From positions 1,080 through 65,079 of the forward strand of contig CAISER010000006.1 in the NCBI GenBank assembly GCA_903884375.1: a stretch of 64,000 nt of DNA, in the 5' to 3' direction. The notes under the pieces were generated by a model, which was not told the DNA's origin, ran no database searches, and saw nothing but the letters and a program-made list of their open reading frames with translations. Below, piece after piece: positions 11,738 through 43,930 of this stretch. This stretch comes from Candidatus Collierbacteria bacterium. Its GTDB lineage: Bacteria; Patescibacteriota; Microgenomatia; UBA1400; MFAQ01. The translations under genes and the position numbers were made by a program. How positions within the stretch are numbered: the stretch's first letter is position 1; each line of letters begins with the position of its first letter.

Positions 11738-11811
11738 GGTCCCGTCGTCTAGTGGTCTAGGACATTTGGTTCTCATCCAAAAGATCGCGGGTTCGACTCC
11801 CGCCGGGATCA
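11738..11811 (+). tRNA. tRNA-Glu, anticodon CUC
   Basis: Manual cloverleaf: acceptor GGTCCCG/CGGGATC (one G-U pair), anticodon stem TTTGG/CCAAA, loop TTCTCAT, T-arm GCGGGTTCGACTCCCGC; CCA not encoded. Confidence 0.85.
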
Positions 11812-11820
11812 CAAATGAAA

Positions 11821-11959: not shown

Positions 11960-12043
11960 CTTAAAGAAGTTTCGCCCAGATTTCTGGGATATTGGCTTAA
12001 TGTACCCAATTATTAAAATGACCCTCTTTCGAGGGTCAAGAAT

Positions 12044-12235
12044 CTAATTACCGTCGTCGACTTTGCCAGTCCCGTAGCACCAGCCACAAGTTCCTTCTTT
12101 ACCCTTGCCTTTACATCTTGGGCAGGTAATCCAATTGCCAGTATTAATATCCATTACCTGGCCTCGGCCATTACACCATCCGCAGTCGCCATTATGTCCC
12201 GATCCGTTACACTTAGGGCATTCAATAATCGGCAT
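12044..12235 (-). CDS. Stand-alone DnaJ-type zinc-finger (CR-domain) mini-protein
   Basis: 63 aa containing four CxxCxGxG repeats (CPKCNGSG, CGWCNGRG, CPRCKGKG, CGWCYGTG), the pattern of the DnaJ cysteine-rich domain. Confidence 0.6.
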   Translation of the reverse strand: MPIIECPKCNGSGHNGDCGWCNGRGQVMDINTGNWITCPRCKGKGKEGTCGWCYGTGKVDDGN

Positions 12236-32006: not shown

Positions 32007-33092
32007 TTAAGATCTTTTGAGGGGCAAATTGATAACAAAAGTAGTGCCCATATTTATTGTACTTTCAACCAGGATTTGACCATGATGCTGTTTAATTATT
32101 TCATTTACGATTGAAAGACCAAGACCGTAGCCTTTTGTAATTGTCTTTGATCGCGAATTATCAGCGCGATAAAAACGCTCAAATATTTTATTAAAATCGT
32201 TTTTTTCTATTCCGATACCAGTGTCTTTAATGGTAAATGTTAAATGATTATTATTTGACGTTAAGTTTATATATATTTTCCCTTTGTCTTTGTTGTACTT
32301 AATTGAATTTTCAAGTAGATTATCAACCATCTCTCTTAAGGCTTCTTCGTTTCCTACTAATACAACTTGTTCCAGCTGATGTTTAATTGAAATCTTTTTC
32401 TTGTCAGCTTGTTTTGTAAACCGAGATACACTATCTAAAATGATTTTGTCTAACCTTACCTCTTGAAAAGAATTTCTATCGATATCATTACTAAATTTTT
32501 CGACCAGTAACAAACTGTTTGCTAATTTTTCCAATGTGTTCACGTCTTCCAAATTACTTTCAAGAAGATCCTTAATTTTTTTGTAAGGAATTGGACCCAT
32601 CATCAAGGTGACCTCTAAGGCGGTTTTGAGATTGGCGAGAGGAGTACGTAATTCATGAGAAGCACTAGCAACAAAAATTTTCTGGTCTTCTAGCATCTTT
32701 TCAATTGGCTTTAATGTCTTTCCTGCTAGAAGATATGATGCACTCGCCGAAACACCGAGAACAATCAGATTGGCAAGGAAAAGAGATAAAAGCAACTGGT
32801 TTCGGGAGATTATGTAATCTTCTCTAATATTATCGTCCAGTGGTGGATCAACTAGCTCTCTTTGAAGATCTTTCGGGTCCGGTAATGGTTTTGGCAACTC
32901 AATCCTTAGTCTGTCGGCGACTATTTTTTGTTGTTCTCTTCTCGCCCCTCTTAGTAACTCAGAATTTAAAGAAGTATAGACAACAATGCTAAATATGAAA
33001 GCGACAATCATAAGTATCACGAGATACCATGCTGTTAGTTGGACTCTAGCTCTGGTGAAATTATTTTTCATTGTTATCAACTTTATATCCAA
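32007..33092 (-). CDS. Sensor histidine kinase (HisKA/HATPase_c), island copy
   Basis: Two TM helices, H-box SHELRTPL, N/G boxes (DTGIGI, GYGLGLSIV); paralog of the 42241-43254 gene. Confidence 0.85.
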   Translation of the reverse strand: MDIKLITMKNNFTRARVQLTAWYLVILMIVAFIFSIVVYTSLNSELLRGARREQQKIVADRLRIELPKPLPDPKDLQRELVDPPLDDNIREDYIISRNQLLLSLFLANLIVLGVSASASYLLAGKTLKPIEKMLEDQKIFVASASHELRTPLANLKTALEVTLMMGPIPYKKIKDLLESNLEDVNTLEKLANSLLLVEKFSNDIDRNSFQEVRLDKIILDSVSRFTKQADKKKISIKHQLEQVVLVGNEEALREMVDNLLENSIKYNKDKGKIYINLTSNNNHLTFTIKDTGIGIEKNDFNKIFERFYRADNSRSKTITKGYGLGLSIVNEIIKQHHGQILVESTINMGTTFVINLPLKRS

Positions 33093-33747
33093 AACCTCTG
33101 ATCGTTTGTATTATTGATTTTGATTTTGGAAATGGTTTGTCAATTTTTTCTCGAAGATAATTTATGTATACTTCAACAGTGTTTGGGAGAACATCATCTT
33201 CATAGCTCCATACATTTTGTATTATTTCGTCTTTTGATTTCACTTTACCTTTGTGTTTTAATAAAAACTCCAACAACGAATACTCCCTTTTTGAGAGAGT
33301 AATCTTTTTTTTGTTTCTACTTACTTCGTGTCTAATTGTGTCAACAATCAAATTACTTTGTTGAAGCACTCCTTCTGTTTGAGTTAGAGGTCTTCGTGAC
33401 AACGCCCTAATTCTAGCTACTAGCTCAGCAAAAACAAATGGTTTGACAAGATAGTCATCTGCGCCCGCGTTTAAACACTCCACCTTGTCACCTGTTGCAC
33501 CTTTGGCTGTTAGTATCAGAATTGGAGTGTGTATATGTTCTTTATCTCGTAAAATATGAATTATTTCAATTCCTGATAGTTTTGGAAGCATGAGATCTAT
33601 TACCAATACATCGTATTTTTCTGTAGTAGCAAGATCCAAACCAGCTTCCCCATCAAACGCCAAGTCGACAGCCCAAGACTCTATCTCGAGACCTGTTTTG
33701 ATAAACTGGGCAATTTTATGCTCGTCTTCAATGACTAATACCCTCAT
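33061..33747 (-). CDS. OmpR-family response regulator, island copy
   Basis: Receiver domain (DD..D phosphoacceptor, K) plus winged-helix trans_reg_C; highly similar to the 43256-43930 regulator. Confidence 0.9.
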   Translation of the reverse strand: MRVLVIEDEHKIAQFIKTGLEIESWAVDLAFDGEAGLDLATTEKYDVLVIDLMLPKLSGIEIIHILRDKEHIHTPILILTAKGATGDKVECLNAGADDYLVKPFVFAELVARIRALSRRPLTQTEGVLQQSNLIVDTIRHEVSRNKKKITLSKREYSLLEFLLKHKGKVKSKDEIIQNVWSYEDDVLPNTVEVYINYLREKIDKPFPKSKSIIQTIRGFGYKVDNNEK

Positions 33748-34576: not shown

Positions 34577-34713
34577 ATTCTTTCTTTTGATAATTATTAA
34601 CAATATGGTTGATAATAAAGCCTGTTGGCTTAGAAGATGCTTGGAATTTTTCCGACTGTTTTTCGGCTCTGTCGGCTTCTGTAGAAAATGAGGCTGTGGT
34701 GAGAATCCTTGCT

Positions 34714-34835
34714 CGGCAACCAAGTTGGACGCTATCAGACCGTGATGCCTAAAATCGGTTGATGCGTCCCAGAGAAGCTCATTTCGTAATTGGAAGTCTC
34801 GGACCGTACGCTCGTTGTTCAGCTATTTCTTTATT
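34714..34835. repeat. 122-bp direct repeat, copy 2; carries a degenerate tRNA-Gln T-arm remnant at its left end and overlaps the 3' end of the serine recombinase gene
   Basis: See copy 1; the 20 nt upstream (GAATCCTTGCTCGGCAACCA) match the tRNA T-arm/acceptor 16/20. Confidence 0.85.
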
Positions 34836-36136
34836 TTGGAGGAGACAAACTTTCTGTTGTGGAGATAAAGTTGGTAGTTAAAAAGTTGTATTAGTTGACG
34901 TTTTCTCACAGGATCTCCACTCTTGAGTACATGCCTCGCATAATCCCTGACGTCCATTATTTTCTCATCTGGGTCAATGTCTTGTCTTAACAGGACATCA
35001 TCTCTAACCTTTCGGTATTCATCCATTCCTTCGCGGATTTCTTTTGACAAGTTTAAGATTTGTGGGTGGGCTATGTAGGTAAAATTGATATACCTTAATA
35101 GCTCCATCGACAAACCTTCTTCGCTGATGTAATCTTCTCGGCAATCGTAATCTACCTGTCGACTGCAATGATAGTAAATGTGATATTTATCCTCTCGATA
35201 TTTTCTTTTTCTTAACTTGTCTTCCCCAATTACATTCGAGCCACAGTTGGCACATTTGAACAAGCCTTTGAAGATGAACATTTTACTTCCCCATTTTGAT
35301 TTTGCCGGAACTATCAGATGTTTTTGGACAATGTCGAACACTTCTTTGGTTATTAATGGTTGATAGGAACCCTTGTACCAACCACCACTTCCGACAGGAT
35401 ACTCAAATTCCCCATAGTAGAAAGGATTTTTTAACATTAGGTAGACTTGACTAAGGCTAACTGCTGAACCAGATTTATTTGTAAATCCTTTTTCTTCCAA
35501 CCATTTTTTAAGTTTCCGTCCTGAAGTTCCTTCAGTAGCAACCTTTTGAAACGCCTCGGCAACGAGTGGAGCTCTATCAGGATCGATAATAATATCCTTC
35601 GTTCCGTTAAAGGCTCTATTGAAATACCCAAGAGGTGCCATCCCTGGTCGAAATCCCATCTCACATTTTGCTCGAATACCTCTTTTGACGTTTAGCCCTT
35701 TTTGATCGTTTTCCAATTTTGCTTGAGAACAAAGGATCATCAACAGAAACTTCTCGTTCGGATTATTCGAAAACATTTGGGAGAATGTCTTAATTTGAAC
35801 AAGTTTCCCTTGATCCATCAAATCTACTATTATTCCCAAGTCTCCTGCATTACGACTTAATCTGTCTGGAGCCCAAGTCAGTATCCCTGTGAACTTCCCG
35901 GCACCGATATCATCCAGTAGCCCCATGAATACCGGCCTCTTACTTGATATTTTGGCTGAATGGCTTTCTCTGCGAATTTCTTTTACAAATAGTCCCTCTC
36001 TTTTGGCAATCTCACCCATTTCTTTAACCTGAGATTCAATTGACATGGCTTGTCTTTCATCGTCTTCACTCGACTTTCTTGCGTAAAGGCAGTAAACAAT
36101 TTCTTTTTGTGGTTCTATTGCGGTTCTCTGTTCCAT
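34823..36136 (-). CDS. Large serine recombinase (resolvase/invertase catalytic domain plus recombinase and zinc-ribbon domains)
   Basis: N-terminal YARKSSEDDERQAMSIESQ catalytic serine motif; C-terminal Cys cluster (CANCGS...CSRQVDYDC). Confidence 0.8.
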   Translation of the reverse strand: MEQRTAIEPQKEIVYCLYARKSSEDDERQAMSIESQVKEMGEIAKREGLFVKEIRRESHSAKISSKRPVFMGLLDDIGAGKFTGILTWAPDRLSRNAGDLGIIVDLMDQGKLVQIKTFSQMFSNNPNEKFLLMILCSQAKLENDQKGLNVKRGIRAKCEMGFRPGMAPLGYFNRAFNGTKDIIIDPDRAPLVAEAFQKVATEGTSGRKLKKWLEEKGFTNKSGSAVSLSQVYLMLKNPFYYGEFEYPVGSGGWYKGSYQPLITKEVFDIVQKHLIVPAKSKWGSKMFIFKGLFKCANCGSNVIGEDKLRKRKYREDKYHIYYHCSRQVDYDCREDYISEEGLSMELLRYINFTYIAHPQILNLSKEIREGMDEYRKVRDDVLLRQDIDPDEKIMDVRDYARHVLKSGDPVRKRQLIQLFNYQLYLHNRKFVSSKIKK

Positions 36137-36204
36137 CTATTGGTATCCATTAGTATGGTCAAGGATACCGCAAGGTTTGTGTAAGTCTAGTCCAAAGATT
36201 AAAT

Positions 36205-36732
36205 TTAGTTAGTTGGATTTTCTCGCGAATCTTCGGATACACGCTCTATAAACTGCCTTAGTCTCTCTAATTCGGCATCCATCTCTTCGGAATCTTTATT
36301 CTTTTTGTATCTACCGATAGAGTTAATAAGAGTTCCCGCTACGCCAATTGGTATTAAACCCTTAAAAACAAGCAATAAAACCGACGCAATCATGCTTTGT
36401 TTGTTTATTCCTTTAATACTTTGCTCGATTCCCGCCTGTTCGTTTGGTGATAATAATATTCGCCTTTGGGTATAGCTTGAGTGATGATTGTTGAGCCAAT
36501 AATAGATAGAGGTAGGATGCCTATCTTTTATTAAACCTATTAGCTGTGACTCAGCCAAATCATTTATAAAATCGACTCCGTCCTTTAAGGCATTATTAGT
36601 TTTCTCCTTAAAGTCTGCATCATCCTCTCGCCAACGATAGTAGCTGGCACGGCTTATTCCTGCTTTTTGGCATGCCACCTGTACTATTGGAGTGGTCTTT
36701 AATTGTTCAACTATACTATCCCTGTCTTTCAT
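36205..36732 (-). CDS. HTH-domain protein resembling a phage terminase small subunit or transposase-type HTH
   Basis: VACQKAGISRASYYRWREDDADF helix-turn-helix near the N-terminus; C-terminal TM/coiled coil; overlaps the upstream gene by 17 nt. Confidence 0.45.
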   Translation of the reverse strand: MKDRDSIVEQLKTTPIVQVACQKAGISRASYYRWREDDADFKEKTNNALKDGVDFINDLAESQLIGLIKDRHPTSIYYWLNNHHSSYTQRRILLSPNEQAGIEQSIKGINKQSMIASVLLLVFKGLIPIGVAGTLINSIGRYKKNKDSEEMDAELERLRQFIERVSEDSRENPTN

Positions 36733-38065
36733 GGAGTATTCCTTTTAATCCGGTAAGGTTTTCCCAACGTTTTTTGATTACTTCTGCATATATGGGTGAT
36801 TTTTCCATGATGTAGCATCTTCGTTTCATTTTGGTGGCTGCAATTAAGGTTGATCCACTACCTCCAAAGGGTTCGATGATGAGATCACCTCGTTTTGTAA
36901 GGACTTTGATATATGGAATCAATATCTCCGTGGGCTTTGTACCAAATACAACTCCTTGTCCGGAATGTTTCTCATCCGAAGCGTTGAACTCGATGAAATC
37001 TGTAGGTTGGGTTTTCTTACCTTTCTCGTAGCCTTCCCACTGTGGTTTGCCAGAGATGGCGTACAGGGCTGTTTCGTATTCTTGTTGAAGTCCATCTTGT
37101 TCCTCCTCATTGTTGTACTCAATATCAGAATCTTGTGATGCCCCAACCATGGCAATGTCGTGTTTGGAAAAGAATTTGTATTTGGCAGAGAAACCTTGGT
37201 GTCTGTTGGGTAAATGCCAGACGATCATGTTTTTCACCTTCCAATGTTTTTCCATCTCACCCCAGATGGTTCTTAAGTTCTTCCAGTTTTCGTAAACAAT
37301 GATGGAAAAGTGTTCTTTTTGAATCTGTGAGACGTTTTCCATCCATTTTTCCGTGAAGTCGGGCGGAAGACTTTCGGTTTCCAGGTATCTTCTGTCCCTT
37401 TTGGCTCCGAATCCTGTAACTGCTTTTCCGTGCTTGGTTTTTCCATTTAAATAATCCAAAATATATGGCGGATCGGTGAAACACATATCCGCTTTTTCTC
37501 CATCCATCATTTTTTGGATATCCTCAATTGCAGTCGAGTCGCCACACATAAGTCGACTTCCATTAAGCTCGTATATTTCTCCTTTCTTGATATTAATTTC
37601 CGTAATATCTAACTTCTTGAGTTCTTTCTGAAGGTCAAACTGTTCGGGAATGTCCACGACATCAAATATCTGGTCCAGTTCTTCGCTTGAAAATCCAATA
37701 TTGTTTAGGATTGACGGATCATACGTCGCCAACATATCCCAATCCCATTCGCCGATATTTTTATTTAATCGAAGATTTAGCTCTTTCTCAACCTCAAGAT
37801 CGGGAATATTGACATAAACTGCCGGTATAGTTTCGATTCCAAGCTCTTTTGCGATCTCTAGTCGGAAATGCCCGCCAATGACAATGTTTTTCCTTTCCGG
37901 AGCTTCATTGACAATAATGGGATCAACCAGACCAAATTTTGTAATACTTTCTTTAAGCTGGTCTGCCGCGTTTTTATCGTGCTTCCTGGGATTATAAACC
38001 GCAGGGTTTAAATCGCTTACTTTGATATATGTGACGGAAATATCCCGTCGGAGTTGTTTTTGCAT
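36716..38065 (-). CDS. ParB-like nuclease domain fused to an N6/N4 DNA methyltransferase (orphan MTase)
   Basis: N-terminal ParB/Srx motif (IVIGGHFRLEIAKELG); C-terminal MTase with FTDPPY catalytic motif and SAM-binding FGGSGS. Confidence 0.8.
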   Translation of the reverse strand: MQKQLRRDISVTYIKVSDLNPAVYNPRKHDKNAADQLKESITKFGLVDPIIVNEAPERKNIVIGGHFRLEIAKELGIETIPAVYVNIPDLEVEKELNLRLNKNIGEWDWDMLATYDPSILNNIGFSSEELDQIFDVVDIPEQFDLQKELKKLDITEINIKKGEIYELNGSRLMCGDSTAIEDIQKMMDGEKADMCFTDPPYILDYLNGKTKHGKAVTGFGAKRDRRYLETESLPPDFTEKWMENVSQIQKEHFSIIVYENWKNLRTIWGEMEKHWKVKNMIVWHLPNRHQGFSAKYKFFSKHDIAMVGASQDSDIEYNNEEEQDGLQQEYETALYAISGKPQWEGYEKGKKTQPTDFIEFNASDEKHSGQGVVFGTKPTEILIPYIKVLTKRGDLIIEPFGGSGSTLIAATKMKRRCYIMEKSPIYAEVIKKRWENLTGLKGILHERQG

Positions 38066-38432
38066 ATGCTTTACGTGGCTATTGCCACAAAAACTATGTT
38101 AATAATCAACTCCTAGACTGAGATATTTTTCGTCTAGGCCACATAGGTGATGTTTATCACCATTTGCCTTTCGGTAGCTCTTGCGAGCCTACTGTTATGC
38201 TCGGAATTATGTTGACCATACCCTGACACTTCAGTAATTTTCCTATCCCACTACTTTAATTATATAGATTTTTGTTGAATTTTTCTTCCAACCAAAATAG
38301 AACATTATATTCTTCAGTTTATCTGCAATAGTAGACTCGTCACGTTTTCCTGCAATCGTTAATACTTCTTCCTTATCAGATTTTGACAACTGCTTTCTTT
38401 TTTATTCCCAATATTTTATTAACTGACACGGT

Positions 38433-42240: not shown

Positions 42241-43254
42241 CTAGCTGAAATGTTGGGGTAGAGTAACAGTAAATGTGCTTCCGTGTCCGAAACGACTTTT
42301 TACTTTTATTTCTCCATGGTGCTTCTCAACAATCATCTTAGCTATGGAAAGGCCTAGGCCAAAACCTGATGCTTTTGATTTTGAACGAGAGGGGTCAGCT
42401 CGATAGAAACGATCAAAGATGAAGGGTAGATCTTTTTGTCTGATTCCTTGACCATGATCGGTGACCGAGAAAGATAATGTCTTATTTGTCTTGGCAGTTT
42501 TAATTAATATTGTTTTATTAGACGAGCTGTATTTGATTGCATTCTCGAGAAGAATAGTGATAAGACTTTCAATTTTTTCTTTATCTCCATGAAAATTTAT
42601 ATTTATGAGGTTTTTTTTGATGATTATTTTTTTACTGTTTGCTTGGGGAAGAATCTTTCTGACTGCTGATTCCATAACATTTAATATCGAAATGTTTTCA
42701 ATGATGGAGCTTCCATTTTGTTCTTTGTTTTTAGACAAATTGATTAACGACTCTGATAAATACTGAAGTCGATCAACATCGGCAATGTTATCTTTGATGA
42801 GCTTTTTAGCATCCACAAGAGTAAGTTTTTTGTCCATTAGGGCAACTTCCATGGCAGATTTAAGGGAAGTTATGGGTGTTTTTAGCTCATGCGATGAATC
42901 TGAAATAAAGCGGTCTTGATCTTCTATCATTTCTTTAATTGGGCGAAGTGTTTTTCCGGCAAGAAAATATCCAAAACCACCGGAAAATATTATGATTATG
43001 CTATTTATAATTAATATGTTTGAAAGAAGATGTTTTTGAGTTTCTGCCACGAGATCGGGGTCGGTAAGGAATGATTGCGAAACGAATAAAGTATCTGGGC
43101 GATACTGTCTTTCGAATCTGGTTCTTTGGGCTCTGGCAAATCTTTTAACTTCAATCATTTGAACATTGAATATCACAGCACTGAAGGTGAAACTTATTAA
43201 CATAATGATGAGTAGATACCATACGGTTAGTTTTAGCCGAGCTTTTTCAAACAT
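42241..43254 (-). CDS. Sensor histidine kinase, chromosomal copy
   Basis: Two TM helices, H-box SHELKTPI, HATPase_c G-boxes (DHGQGI, GFGLGLSIA). Confidence 0.85.
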   Translation of the reverse strand: MFEKARLKLTVWYLLIIMLISFTFSAVIFNVQMIEVKRFARAQRTRFERQYRPDTLFVSQSFLTDPDLVAETQKHLLSNILIINSIIIIFSGGFGYFLAGKTLRPIKEMIEDQDRFISDSSHELKTPITSLKSAMEVALMDKKLTLVDAKKLIKDNIADVDRLQYLSESLINLSKNKEQNGSSIIENISILNVMESAVRKILPQANSKKIIIKKNLININFHGDKEKIESLITILLENAIKYSSSNKTILIKTAKTNKTLSFSVTDHGQGIRQKDLPFIFDRFYRADPSRSKSKASGFGLGLSIAKMIVEKHHGEIKVKSRFGHGSTFTVTLPQHFS

Positions 43255-43255
43255 A

Positions 43256-43930
43256 TTAGTTTTCTATTTTGTAGCCGAAACCTCTAATGGTTTTAAGTAG
43301 AAGTTTTTTGTTTTTAAACGGTGTCTCGATTTTTTGTCTAAGTTTTCTGATATAGACTTCTACCGTATTTGGAAGAACATCATCGTCATAGTTCCATACA
43401 TGACTTATGATTTGTTCTTTGGAAATGATTTTTCCAGAATGACGCATAAGATACTCGAGAAGTGAATATTCTTTACCGGAAAGGGAGATTTCTCTACCCC
43501 CCCTTTCAACTAAATAGCTTATTGTATCTAGTTCGAGGTCACCCGTTTTAAGTACTGGGTTTTGACTTCCTGAAGGGCGGCGTATCAGAGCACGGACTCT
43601 AGCCAGTAGTTCCTCAAAAGAAAATGGCTTGGTGAGATAGTCATCGGCTCCTGAATTTAAACCCAGTATTTTATCTTCCGTCTGACTTTTGGCAGTAAGA
43701 ACTAAAATCGGGGTGTGAATACTATCTTGACGAAGTTTTTTACAGATATTAATGCCGTCGATTCCGGGAAGCATAAGATCAAGAATAAGACAATCGTATT
43801 CTTCGGTGGTGGCGAGATCTAAACCGTCACGTCCGTCAAAGGCTAGGTCTACAGCATATTTTTCAAGCTCGAGACCCTTTTTTATAGTTGTGCCTATTCG
43901 ATGTTCGTCTTCAACCACTAATATTCTCAT
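43256..43930 (-). CDS. OmpR-family response regulator, chromosomal copy
   Basis: Receiver plus winged helix; 2-nt gap to the kinase gene. Confidence 0.9.
   Translation of the reverse strand: MRILVVEDEHRIGTTIKKGLELEKYAVDLAFDGRDGLDLATTEEYDCLILDLMLPGIDGINICKKLRQDSIHTPILVLTAKSQTEDKILGLNSGADDYLTKPFSFEELLARVRALIRRPSGSQNPVLKTGDLELDTISYLVERGGREISLSGKEYSLLEYLMRHSGKIISKEQIISHVWNYDDDVLPNTVEVYIRKLRQKIETPFKNKKLLLKTIRGFGYKIEN

Follow-up and report, generated by a model that had tools for sequence, protein, structure and literature searches.

Three genes of a Candidatus Collierbacteria contig as the probable core of a phage-derived integrative island from a family widespread among CPR bacteria

The locus described here lies in a window of 64,000 nucleotides (the whole stretch of DNA that was analysed) from a Candidatus Collierbacteria bacterium. 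In line with the original prediction, three co-directional genes are present, all on the minus strand (ORFs 38065..36716, 36732..36205 and 36136..34823), and profile searches together with synteny agree with the functions proposed for them: a ParB-methyltransferase (MTase), a TerS-like HTH protein and a large serine recombinase (LSR). The junctions had been described as overlapping, which is correct for the MTase and HTH genes (17 nt overlap) but not for the HTH and LSR genes, which are 68 nt apart. Structural genes, said to be missing, were indeed not found near the locus in the ORF list or by profile searches. TerL, a repressor and a replication gene are all absent from the window copy, and no TerL was found anywhere in the window. 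The features are as follows:

34577..34822, no strand: region expected to hold the right junction (sister elements are homologous only up to the LSR stop codon or its vicinity)
34823..36136, minus strand: LSR (predicted integrase) gene, 437 aa, with Resolvase, Recombinase and Zn_ribbon_recom domains
36137..36204, minus strand: HTH/LSR spacer, 68 nt (relatives carry TerL and cargo at the same position)
36205..36732, minus strand: HTH (TerS-family) gene, 175 aa (PHROG, fold match and synteny)
36716..38065, minus strand: ParB_N plus N6/N4 MTase gene, 449 aa (Pfam above cutoff; ORF list)
38063..38098, minus strand: predicted 3' leader helix 6, 13 pairs with CAUA/UAUG pairing, enclosing the MTase start codon
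38066..38252, minus strand: predicted structured 5' leader RNA ahead of the MTase and HTH genes, folding into a multi-stem junction with a 3' hairpin (covariance, MFE)
38113..38139, minus strand: inverted repeat IR1, CCTAGAC-n13-GTCTAGG, conserved helix 5 of the predicted leader (present in five of five leaders)
38147..38162, minus strand: inverted repeat IR2, GGTGAT-n4-ATCACC, a variable, dispensable hairpin of the predicted leader (deleted in L003 and L127)
38259..38284, minus strand: promoter-like segment AAAAATTCAACAAAAATCTATATAAT, with TATAAT at 38264..38259 (nearly invariant in five homologous leaders)
38285..38299, no strand: interval holding the left junction (yceG homology stops at 38300, leader homology starts at ~38284)
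38300..38386, minus strand: remnant of host mltG/yceG (~codons 45-73), flank outside the element that marks the left junction (tblastn, blastn)

The MTase gene matches the Pfam families ParB_N (46 bits, cutoff 26.3) and N6_N4_Mtase (74.4 bits, cutoff 26.7) as well as phrog_498 (E=1.3e-79) and the PADLOC models for type II and orphan MTases, and its translation displays DPPY and FGGSGST motifs (FxGxG type). Its product is a predicted ParB_N-fused beta-class N6A/N4C DNA methyltransferase. The surrounding DNA encodes the HTH protein, the LSR, a DUF5666 protein and secreted proteins; since no cognate restriction endonuclease occurs among these neighbours, the MTase is an orphan in the window. It is 65-85% identical over most CPR loci, which come from many CPR lineages (the window has the single-MTase form), and a dN of 0.10 with saturated dS shows strong purifying selection.

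The LSR scores above the cutoff for all three of its Pfam domains (PF00239, 66.1 bits, cutoff 23.3; PF07508, 50.2 bits; PF13408, 30.8 bits), with the zinc beta-ribbon located C-terminal of the catalytic domain. It matches the integrase family phrog_95 (E=3e-61) and more weakly the DNA-invertase family phrog_125. The nearest solved protein is SprA of SPbeta (E=5e-7), in which YLRRS aligns with YARKS of the window protein (YxRxS), and the best NCBIfam match is CcrB (97 bits against a cutoff of 900). The third gene thus encodes a large serine recombinase, predicted to act as an integrase. SprA/SprB of SPbeta, other LSR-integrated prophages and the Ccr recombinases of SCCmec share the same three-domain layout, but the similarity of the window protein to SprA and Ccr is remote.

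For the HTH protein all Pfam matches are below threshold (HTH_Tnp_1_2, 19.4 bits, cutoff 27.9; Sf6_terminase, 16.4 bits), and the PHROG families of terminase small subunits are matched with E-values from 1.5e-6 to 9e-3. A homologue carries the NCBI name 'phBC6A51 family HTH', and in a Foldseek search with an AF2 monomer model the best-probability match is the phBC6A51 protein 2ao9 (probability 0.92, E 0.59), which PMC11331095 regards as a small terminase. A profile search of the PDB gave no sequence match, 2AO9 included. The structural likeness concerns the N-terminal ~90 residues; the window protein differs from 2AO9 in an extra, clade-specific helical C-terminal extension of ~80 residues. 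By themselves these profile and fold scores form a weak basis for a TerS assignment. Synteny strongly backs the reading as a divergent small terminase: the homologues sit directly upstream of TerL in 85 of 95 loci, though the window gene itself has no adjacent downstream large terminase. The HTH protein changes far more rapidly than the MTase (L003 and L127 share 45% identity in the former and 90% in the latter).

In the original prediction, the 367 bp upstream of the MTase gene contained two candidate operator sites. About 220 nt of it (38066-38284) belong to the element, whereas 38300-38386 represent the host mltG/yceG remnant. Both perfect inverted repeats are present at the positions originally reported, yet by themselves they do not exceed chance: when the region was shuffled 1000 times with dinucleotides preserved, one or more perfect 7-nt repeats arose with P=0.29 and three or more 6-nt repeats with P=0.25. 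They merit attention only because of comparative evidence. The leader alignment, consisting of only five sequences (the window, L003, L011, L013 and L127) from which the structure itself was derived, contains 44 pairs with all 219 cells paired and compensatory changes in 8 pairs; none of 500 shuffles reaches this level, and slid controls yield 25-44% pairing. Covariance model R1 scores 197 bits at the window leader, the MFE is -57 kcal/mol (z=-4.45), and 2 of the 13 pairs of helix 6 show compensatory changes (GU..AC to AC..GU). In L011 and L013 a C-G pair of IR1 has become U-G, which is tolerated in sense-strand RNA only; of the four homologous leaders, L003 and L127 lack IR2, and the other two have a different sequence there. 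Given that IR2 is variable or absent in relatives and that the IR1 changes fit sense-strand RNA pairing, on present evidence we do not regard the repeats as operators; they are better explained as predicted hairpins of a structured 5' leader RNA of ~190 nt. Overall, the comparisons show a conserved, predicted leader structure ahead of the MTase-HTH operon, the last helix of which would enclose the start codon. A scan with Rfam 15 returned nothing better than E=1.6 (17 bits, far below gathering scores), and the leader is a candidate new cis-regulatory RNA. We infer that the segment at 38259..38284 is its promoter; a consensus sigma-70 scan did not call it.

The left flank provides information about the insertion site. 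The mltG/yceG remnant matches the YceG of L118 (69% over 29 aa with tblastn, 81% over 75 nt with blastn), and the window keeps 29 codons of the gene beside the element. In this relative (L118-L121), which has 88% nucleotide identity to the window over 5.6 kb of flank, an intact 340-aa YceG is encoded directly after the DUF5666 gene (order DUF5666-mltG-tRNA-Glu) and the element is absent. Because a close relative lacks the module and has an intact mltG there, and because homologous modules occur in many unrelated contexts, a phage-derived module at a mobility junction is supported. The boundary at ~38284 is defined by the leader homologues of L003, L011, L013 and L127; as it coincides in the sisters with the end of an upstream gene, it may in those elements be a junction of the module rather than the end of the element. 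At the other side, a right-end block is conserved in six sister elements (L003, L011, L012, L013, L015 and L026; most of those examined) and absent from the whole window. Searches for att sites, terminal repeats, a within-species empty site and an excised circle found none. The window copy lies at a synteny break in a rearranged locus, and its context is the same in at least six conspecific assemblies. Being identical in all conspecific contigs, it is probably fixed in the species; the lack of a recognisable right-end block, the synteny break and the shared position in all conspecifics suggest that it is probably no longer mobile. At present it may be mainly a regulated orphan methylase locus.

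Relatives place the locus in a broader setting. In a set of 106 non-redundant related loci, drawn from all CPR/Patescibacteria lineages, the ParB-MTase gene lies directly upstream of the TerS-family gene in 90 of 91 loci, and a co-directional LSR gene is found within 10 kb in 46 of 65. Together with TerL this gives the architecture [leader]-ParB-MTase-(second MTase)-TerS-TerL-[variable cargo]-LSR. The family TerL qualifies as a true terminase: it matches phrog_38 (E=1e-67), and its Walker A, Walker B and nuclease motifs are at least 90% conserved among 78 proteins. The 128 cargo proteins include repressors, superinfection-exclusion proteins, R-M methylases and helicases, with Thoeris-like, metal-resistance and efflux genes as further cargo; S24 repressor, CBASS cyclase, ThsB, Schlafen and Ltp are seen in cargo or flanks, and relatives often carry S24 or XRE repressors. 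Portal, capsid and tail families are not among the 25 most frequent in these cargo proteins (88 matched in all), the gene maps of ~105 loci show no recurrent structural family contiguous with the terminase genes, and neither source revealed a recurrent replication gene. Several MAGs hold two copies (L030 with L064 and L074 with L086, each from the same isolates; L093 with L111 on one contig), and some loci two tandem TerL paralogues (L105, L113). All 13 TerL-less loci fall inside a single 15-tip clade of the 106-locus tree, to which the window copy belongs; their triads differ in context, have HTH proteins of 41-55% identity and keep all three ORFs intact. The tree thus shows the TerL-less form as one evolving lineage and not as one-off decay. 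With at least 353 species-representative genomes, the family is very widespread among CPR bacteria and previously undescribed. The original prediction had named two observations that would speak against it, an HTH protein of a conventional transcription-factor family and three conserved core genes; neither holds, as the protein belongs to no such family and the genes are not core.

The gene order resembles that of temperate siphophages. The sole cultured-phage homologue of the window HTH protein is an ORF of Riemerella phage vB_RanS_PJN03 (35% identity), in the order ParB_N-ParB_N-PAPS reductase-[HTH homologue]-TerL-portal, and Streptococcus phage Javan124 has ParB-MTase-MTase-...-TerS-TerL. 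Both share with the CPR islands the order ParB_N/ParB-MTase, second modification gene, TerS and TerL, at low identity (~30% for the MTase, at most 26% for TerL). After TerL the phages continue with portal and virion genes, whereas the islands continue with cargo and the LSR.

Phage satellites of the SaPI/PICI and minimalist PICMI types are integrated islands with an integrase, their own small terminase for packaging and anti-phage cargo, and without capsid or tail genes. The CPR islands are alike in integrase, TerS, anti-phage cargo and lack of virion genes, and in relatives an S24-type repressor lies beside the module. They differ from PICIs in that the integrase is an LSR, the core consists of ParB-MTase, TerS and their own TerL (classical PICIs carry TerS only), and no replication or primase module is recognised. 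The cf-PICIs encode both TerS and TerL, as the island family does, plus portal, capsid, protease and head-tail connectors, which do not recur among the 128 cargo proteins. The window copy itself combines an integrase and a candidate packaging-redirection gene with no virion genes; neither a master repressor nor an own replication module is present in the window. Without TerL and repressor it measures ~3.5 kb, to our knowledge far smaller than any described satellite, and its dependence on a helper we infer by analogy. According to a 2025 preprint (10.1101/2025.02.15.638363), it is not known if viruses of CPR hosts have satellites. CPR phages with a closely related TerL or TerS are absent from the phage collection, which weighs against a satellite reading.

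Taking these observations together, we consider it reasonably probable that the three genes form the core of an integrative island of ~3.5 kb that derives from a phage and represents a minimal, TerL-less form of the CPR-wide family. The LSR would have integrated the element, and the leader RNA may gate the MTase and TerS-like genes at the level of translation, which would be coupled between the two. Methylation of element and host DNA by the ParB-MTase would protect against restriction after transfer. The TerS-like protein would recognise element DNA and, having no TerL of its own, would need to rely on a helper phage for large terminase and capsids, similar to SaPI-type satellites. Given that methylase, packaging genes and integrase are kept without virus-particle genes, these elements may be the first CPR phage satellites. 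More tentatively, and with well under an even chance, the locus would be a reduced member of a first CPR phage-satellite-like family: capsid-less LSR islands with their own TerS, with or without TerL, and a highly conserved ParB-methylase, spreading defence and resistance cargo across the radiation in hijacked CPR-phage capsids, with gating by a new class of structured leader RNA in one sub-clade. The initial suggestion of a satellite or a decayed prophage end is therefore supported as far as a mobile, phage-derived and satellite-like nature is concerned, while an actual satellite lifestyle is conjectural.

A decayed prophage end or domesticated remnant appears less likely. Here only the MTase-TerS genes and the integrase of an old prophage would be left over, the orphan methylase would be retained because it serves the host in epigenetic or anti-restriction roles, the HTH protein would now be a regulator or drifting, and the LSR would be idle. 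It would agree with the loss of TerL, repressor and right-end block, the rearranged position next to a destroyed mltG, fixation in all conspecific contigs, a gene order equal to the start of the packaging module in real phages, and the rapid change of the HTH protein relative to the MTase. Nevertheless, in more than 100 related loci portal or capsid genes never follow, which leaves no intact prophage as a starting point for decay; the TerL-less triad is a single diversified lineage that has moved between contexts with intact ORFs; and in the window all three ORFs are full length, with the catalytic Ser, DPPY and SAM-binding motifs retained. The family architecture likewise argues against random decay.

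Two further explanations were weighed. In one, the MTase would mark self DNA in a defence or anti-restriction module, with TerS(-TerL) as a DNA-sensing nuclease/translocase or anti-phage decoy and the LSR mobilising the defence island. Islands and flanks are rich in type I, IIG and III R-M, CBASS cyclase, ThsB, Shedu SduA_C and Schlafen, the TerL nuclease motifs are kept with no capsid genes nearby, and the tandem TerL paralogues would also fit. This reading is nonetheless improbable: PADLOC gives no significant match for TerL, HTH or LSR, the genes are ordered as in the packaging modules of phages, and a restriction-like system is excluded for the window copy because it lacks any nuclease partner. 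Even less credible, to the point of being very improbable, is a switch by site-specific inversion or phase variation, with the recombinase flipping a promoter segment that controls the methylase. Serine recombinases can be invertases, as the weaker phrog_125 match recalls, and inverted repeats do lie upstream of the MTase; but the protein is a full-length LSR with recombinase and zinc-ribbon domains instead of a small invertase, no segment is bounded by long inverted repeats, the repeats upstream of the MTase gene are short predicted RNA hairpins conserved with covariation, and all conspecific contigs have one orientation only.

CPR bacteria make up a large share of bacterial diversity, and very little is known about the phages and mobile elements they carry. 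The window copy is a modest, probably immobilised example, and its value lies in the family it reveals. The LSRs of this family could be a source of new integrases. Given its presence in so many genomes, the defence and resistance cargo and the high methylase identity across lineages, the family is a candidate for a principal route by which genes move horizontally within the CPR radiation.

The module consists of three co-directional open reading frames (ORFs) on the minus strand, at exactly the coordinates of the original prediction:

38065..36716, minus strand, ParB_N and N6_N4_Mtase fusion (MTase), 449 aa
36732..36205, minus strand, helix-turn-helix (HTH) protein, 175 aa
36136..34823, minus strand, large serine recombinase (LSR), 437 aa

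The junctions had been described as overlapping, which is only half right: there is a 17-nt overlap between the MTase and HTH genes but a 68-nt gap between HTH and LSR. Pfam searches place ParB_N and N6_N4_Mtase in the MTase protein and Resolvase, Recombinase and Zn_ribbon_recom in the LSR protein, all above cutoff. In PHROGs these proteins match phrog_498 (DNA methyltransferase, E=1.3e-79) and phrog_95 (integrase, E=3e-61), respectively. The 175-aa HTH protein yields matches below threshold only, in Pfam to HTH families of the IS-transposase type and in PHROGs to families of the terminase small subunit (TerS; best E=1.5e-6).

A protein search returned 582 homologues of the HTH protein, one of which bears the NCBI name 'phBC6A51 family helix-turn-helix protein'. 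Scanning one genome per GTDB species gave 353 HTH-encoding stretches, with named records from Microgenomates, Parcubacteria, Saccharibacteria, Gracilibacteria, Peribacteria, Dojkabacteria and Berkelbacteria; IMG/VR adds 24 further loci, and no homologue was present in the plasmid collection searched. The family is thus large and specific to bacteria of the Candidate Phyla Radiation (CPR), and the complete CPR genomes CP011210, CP011214, OZ246396 and OZ246423 are among the carriers of the island. Gene architecture was counted over 106 non-redundant instances, for the two neighbours of the HTH gene among those loci that extend far enough on the respective side. In 90 of 91 loci the HTH gene starts right where a ParB-MTase homologue stops (in some a second methylase follows), an ORF of ~500 aa lies directly 3' of the HTH gene in 85 of 95, and a co-directional LSR is found less than 10 kb downstream in 46 of 65 (distance 73 to 9583 nt, median 2.7 kb). 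The ~500-aa ORF encodes a large terminase (TerL; phrog_38, E=1.2e-67): conservation of the Walker A and Walker B motifs and of the acidic motifs of the RNase-H-type nuclease reaches at least 90% among 78 full-length members, which have a mean pairwise identity of 45%. Two IMG/VR loci (L105 and L113) have two tandem TerL paralogues of ~520-560 aa each between the methylases and the LSR, which is unusual for a packaging module.

Among 50,697 phage records, only Riemerella phage vB_RanS_PJN03 has a homologue of the HTH protein, encoded by an unannotated ORF. This ORF immediately precedes and overlaps the annotated gene for the terminase large subunit, which is followed by portal; two ParB_N genes and a PAPS-reductase-family gene are located upstream. 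ParB-MTase fusions of ~30% identity occur in 182 phage records, and Streptococcus phage Javan124 shows the order ParB-MTase, second MTase and, further on, TerS and TerL. The AlphaFold model of the HTH protein (mean pLDDT 80.7; >90 for roughly residues 11-80) has as its most probable PDB match 2AO9, the phBC6A51 protein (probability 0.92 but E 0.59), which is counted among the small terminases (PMC11331095). A profile search of the PDB with the HTH protein gave nothing significant. Mainly because of the synteny with TerL, in the family as well as in the Riemerella phage, we conclude that the suspected TerS-like protein is most probably a divergent TerS, even though the window protein's own scores are weak.

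To characterize the cargo, the 128 proteins located between TerS/TerL and the LSR were compared with PHROGs. Recurrent families are XRE-type repressors (17 members), superinfection-exclusion proteins, DNA methylases and helicases; none of the 25 most frequent families is a portal, capsid or tail family. Single cargo genes code for an Ltp lipoprotein (PF07553), R-M systems of type I, IIG and III and metabolic enzymes; a CopA/CsoR copper operon and an RND pump were recognized by eye. On the 5' side of the methylase, and often in divergent orientation, we find a Peptidase_S24 repressor (18 loci), a CBASS-type cyclase, a ThsB-like TIR protein and a metallo-beta-lactamase-fold protein, and downstream of the LSR a Schlafen/AlbA_2 protein. 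Several MAGs contain two copies of the island (the related loci L030 and L064, L074 and L086, L093 and L111). Given the cargo in place of virion genes and these double copies, the family behaves like a mobile genomic island: its methylase-terminase core is conserved and of phage origin, and it encodes a serine integrase.

Two unusual loci were inspected separately. The 9-kb 'cargo' of L047 was ruled out as a set of hidden structural genes, as its genes are metabolic enzymes. In L094:1-14426 (IMGVR_UViG_3300020195_001307), a contig labelled viral, a direct repeat recurs perfectly every 9117 bp. Its repeat unit holds an MTase-MTase-TerS module together with a truncated TerL, a PfkB kinase, a ribonucleotide reductase and a NUDIX gene; based on this content a circular episome was rejected, and the repeat would stem from a tandem duplication or from an artefact of assembly.

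TerL is absent from 13 loci (the window, L003, L006, L007, L011, L012, L013, L015, L016, L017, L124, L126 and L127). In all of these the LSR is at most 2.7 kb away, and all fall inside one 15-tip clade of a neighbour-joining tree built from the N-terminal domains of 106 HTH proteins. Apart from L007, their HTH proteins carry a helical C-terminal extension of ~40-70 residues, which is missing from the TerL-linked homologues. Evolutionary rates of the three genes are very unequal inside the clade: MTases are 83-86% identical to the window protein (dN 0.10, with dS saturated), and identity amounts to about 52% for the LSR and 43-54% for the HTH protein. The genes are under selection. Between L003 and L127 the MTase and LSR are each 90% identical, whereas the TerS-like protein between them is just 45% identical, which suggests that a cassette was exchanged or that the subunit recognizing DNA is under diversifying selection. 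Judging from the single-clade placement and the gene comparison, TerL was probably lost once or twice, after which the triad would have diversified and relocated with its three ORFs intact; this counts against reading it as a random wreck. The sole sign of decay among the TerL-less triads is seen at L124:4678-6017, where a frameshift or a sequencing error divides the ParB-MTase into two ORFs, one for ParB_N (66 aa) and one for the MTase (374 aa).

The insertion site was studied using contigs of a close relative (L118-L121; MacB permease 92% identical, 5.6 kb of flank at 88% nucleotide identity) from which the element is absent. These show the order RR-HK-MacA-MacB-MacB-DUF5666, with an intact 340-aa YceG/MltG directly after it and then tRNA-Glu and greA. 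The window contains no intact mltG; it keeps about codons 45-73 of mltG/yceG at 38386-38300. As homology to the sister elements L003, L011, L013 and L127 starts at about 38284, the predicted left junction is inside 38285-38299. Synteny with L118 is back only at tRNA-Glu (window 11738-11812, from 11812), 26.5 kb from the mltG remnant, so that the element appears to sit at a rearrangement breakpoint where a clean empty site is lacking. The interval is occupied by housekeeping genes, among them Lon, an aminoacyl-tRNA synthetase, Lgt, Dtd, MgsA and SpoU, which rules out one large island in favour of a synteny break. Together with the diverse contexts of the family, the comparison with L118 bears out the mobility signal and excludes the alternative that the three are conserved core genes.

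The element is flanked by two paralogous OmpR-type response-regulator/histidine-kinase pairs (window 43930..42241 and 33747..32007), and genes for secreted or efflux proteins follow each of them. Synteny with the relative that lacks the element covers the upstream pair together with MacAB and DUF5666, so this pair is host DNA rather than cargo. In the gap beside tRNA-Glu, at about 12040-12235 (minus strand), lies a small CxxC-rich ORF (MPIIECPKCNGSGHNGDCGWCNGRGQ...CPRCKGKGKEGTCGWCYGTGK) resembling DnaJ-type zinc-finger repeats, with a hairpin terminator after it.

On the right side, sister-element homology ends at or near the LSR stop codon. A block of ~125 nt, >90% identical, is located 0.3-1 kb beyond the LSR in a number of relatives and is better conserved than the adjacent LSR gene:

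L003:12235-12362, right-end block
L011:12927-13054, right-end block
L013:8684-8811, right-end block
L012:2718-2845, right-end block
L015:3259-3386, right-end block
L026:13548-13675, right-end block

The block has a sharp outer edge, which in L012 and L015 borders directly on tRNA-Glu. Its features include a GC-rich hairpin closed by a GCAA loop and a T-arm-like GTTCGAGTCCC segment. It gave no Rfam match and no covariation, and could represent either a small RNA or the attR-proximal terminus of the element. The entire window lacks it. The element is found in the same context in at least six conspecific assemblies, and a search for an empty site among conspecific contigs showed all 8-plus to carry it there. 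Based on this shared context and the absent block, the window copy is probably fixed, and its right end is probably gone. Around the module, terminal direct or inverted repeats are limited to short chance-level matches; a candidate attB dyad (TTGGAAG/CTTCCAA, one per side) was dropped, being 7 nt only and without support from any comparison.

Two inverted repeats upstream of the MTase gene, IR1 (38113-38139) and IR2 (38147-38162), are present as reported. In dinucleotide-preserving shuffles of the 367-bp region, chance alone yields repeats of this quality with P ~0.25-0.29, and their proposed role as operator sites does not hold on present evidence: both are hairpins of what appears to be a structured leader RNA. 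Over the ~220 nt that precede the MTase start codon, identity with L003, L011 and L013 amounts to 75-82% (L127 carries the leader too), as high as for the coding sequence, where synonymous sites are saturated. A conserved TATAAT-containing segment is followed by a multi-stem junction and a terminal hairpin. For the 44 proposed pairs, 219 of 219 cells in five leader sequences are standard pairs and 8 pairs changed on both sides, although the structure was derived from those same five sequences. None of 500 column shuffles reached these values, and sliding the 3' partners by 1-3 columns lowers pairing to 25-44% with 0-1 compensatory pairs. Several sense-strand changes are C-G to U-G or G-C to G-U, which are A.C mismatches on the opposite strand or in DNA.

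The window leader alone folds at -57 kcal/mol (z = -4.45). IR1 corresponds to helix 5, kept in all five leaders, and IR2 to a variable hairpin absent in L003 and L127; in the last helix CAUA pairs with UAUG, enclosing the MTase start codon. No Rfam family matches the leader. Our covariance model (R1), run over about 100 loci, finds it in L003, L011, L013 and L127 only and thus as specific to the sub-clade; a metagenome scan with a leader 20-mer gave one chance match, inside a signal-peptidase-like gene. Protein may also bind the DNA of this region. At L026:8440-8652, in a TerL-bearing element with an MTase 84% identical to that of the window, the promoter-like start and a similar GGCUC-loop-GAGCU hairpin are shared; the remainder differs and is missed by the model. 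Other sub-clades may have leader variants of their own.

A domesticated or decayed remnant is a plausible description of the window copy, not of the family. That the terminase genes serve in defence seems improbable: the island context would fit, but the HTH, LSR and TerL proteins have no significant PADLOC match and the window is without a nuclease. Even harder to credit is a phase-variation switch, given that flanking inverted repeats are absent and all contigs show one orientation. The finding is best read as a phage-derived integrative island of satellite type, with the candidate cis-regulatory RNA as an additional unclassified element. Full-text literature searches turned up no earlier account of such islands from the CPR, and according to a 2025 preprint it is unknown whether viruses of CPR hosts have satellites (10.1101/2025.02.15.638363).

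Such an island would be integrated by its LSR, and the leader would gate the translation of MTase and TerS-like protein from their coupled genes. The ParB-MTase would methylate island and host DNA, as presumably do the phage homologues heading packaging modules, and after transfer, methylation would shield the DNA from the R-M systems that are abundant in recipients. The TerS-like protein would mark island DNA for packaging, for which full-length relatives would use the island's own TerL. SaPI TerS makes use of the TerL of a helper phage, and by analogy a helper's TerL would serve the TerL-less clade. Capsids would have to come from the helper phage, since the islands encode none. We suggest that the window copy, fixed and without its right end, persists today chiefly as an orphan methylase locus under regulation.
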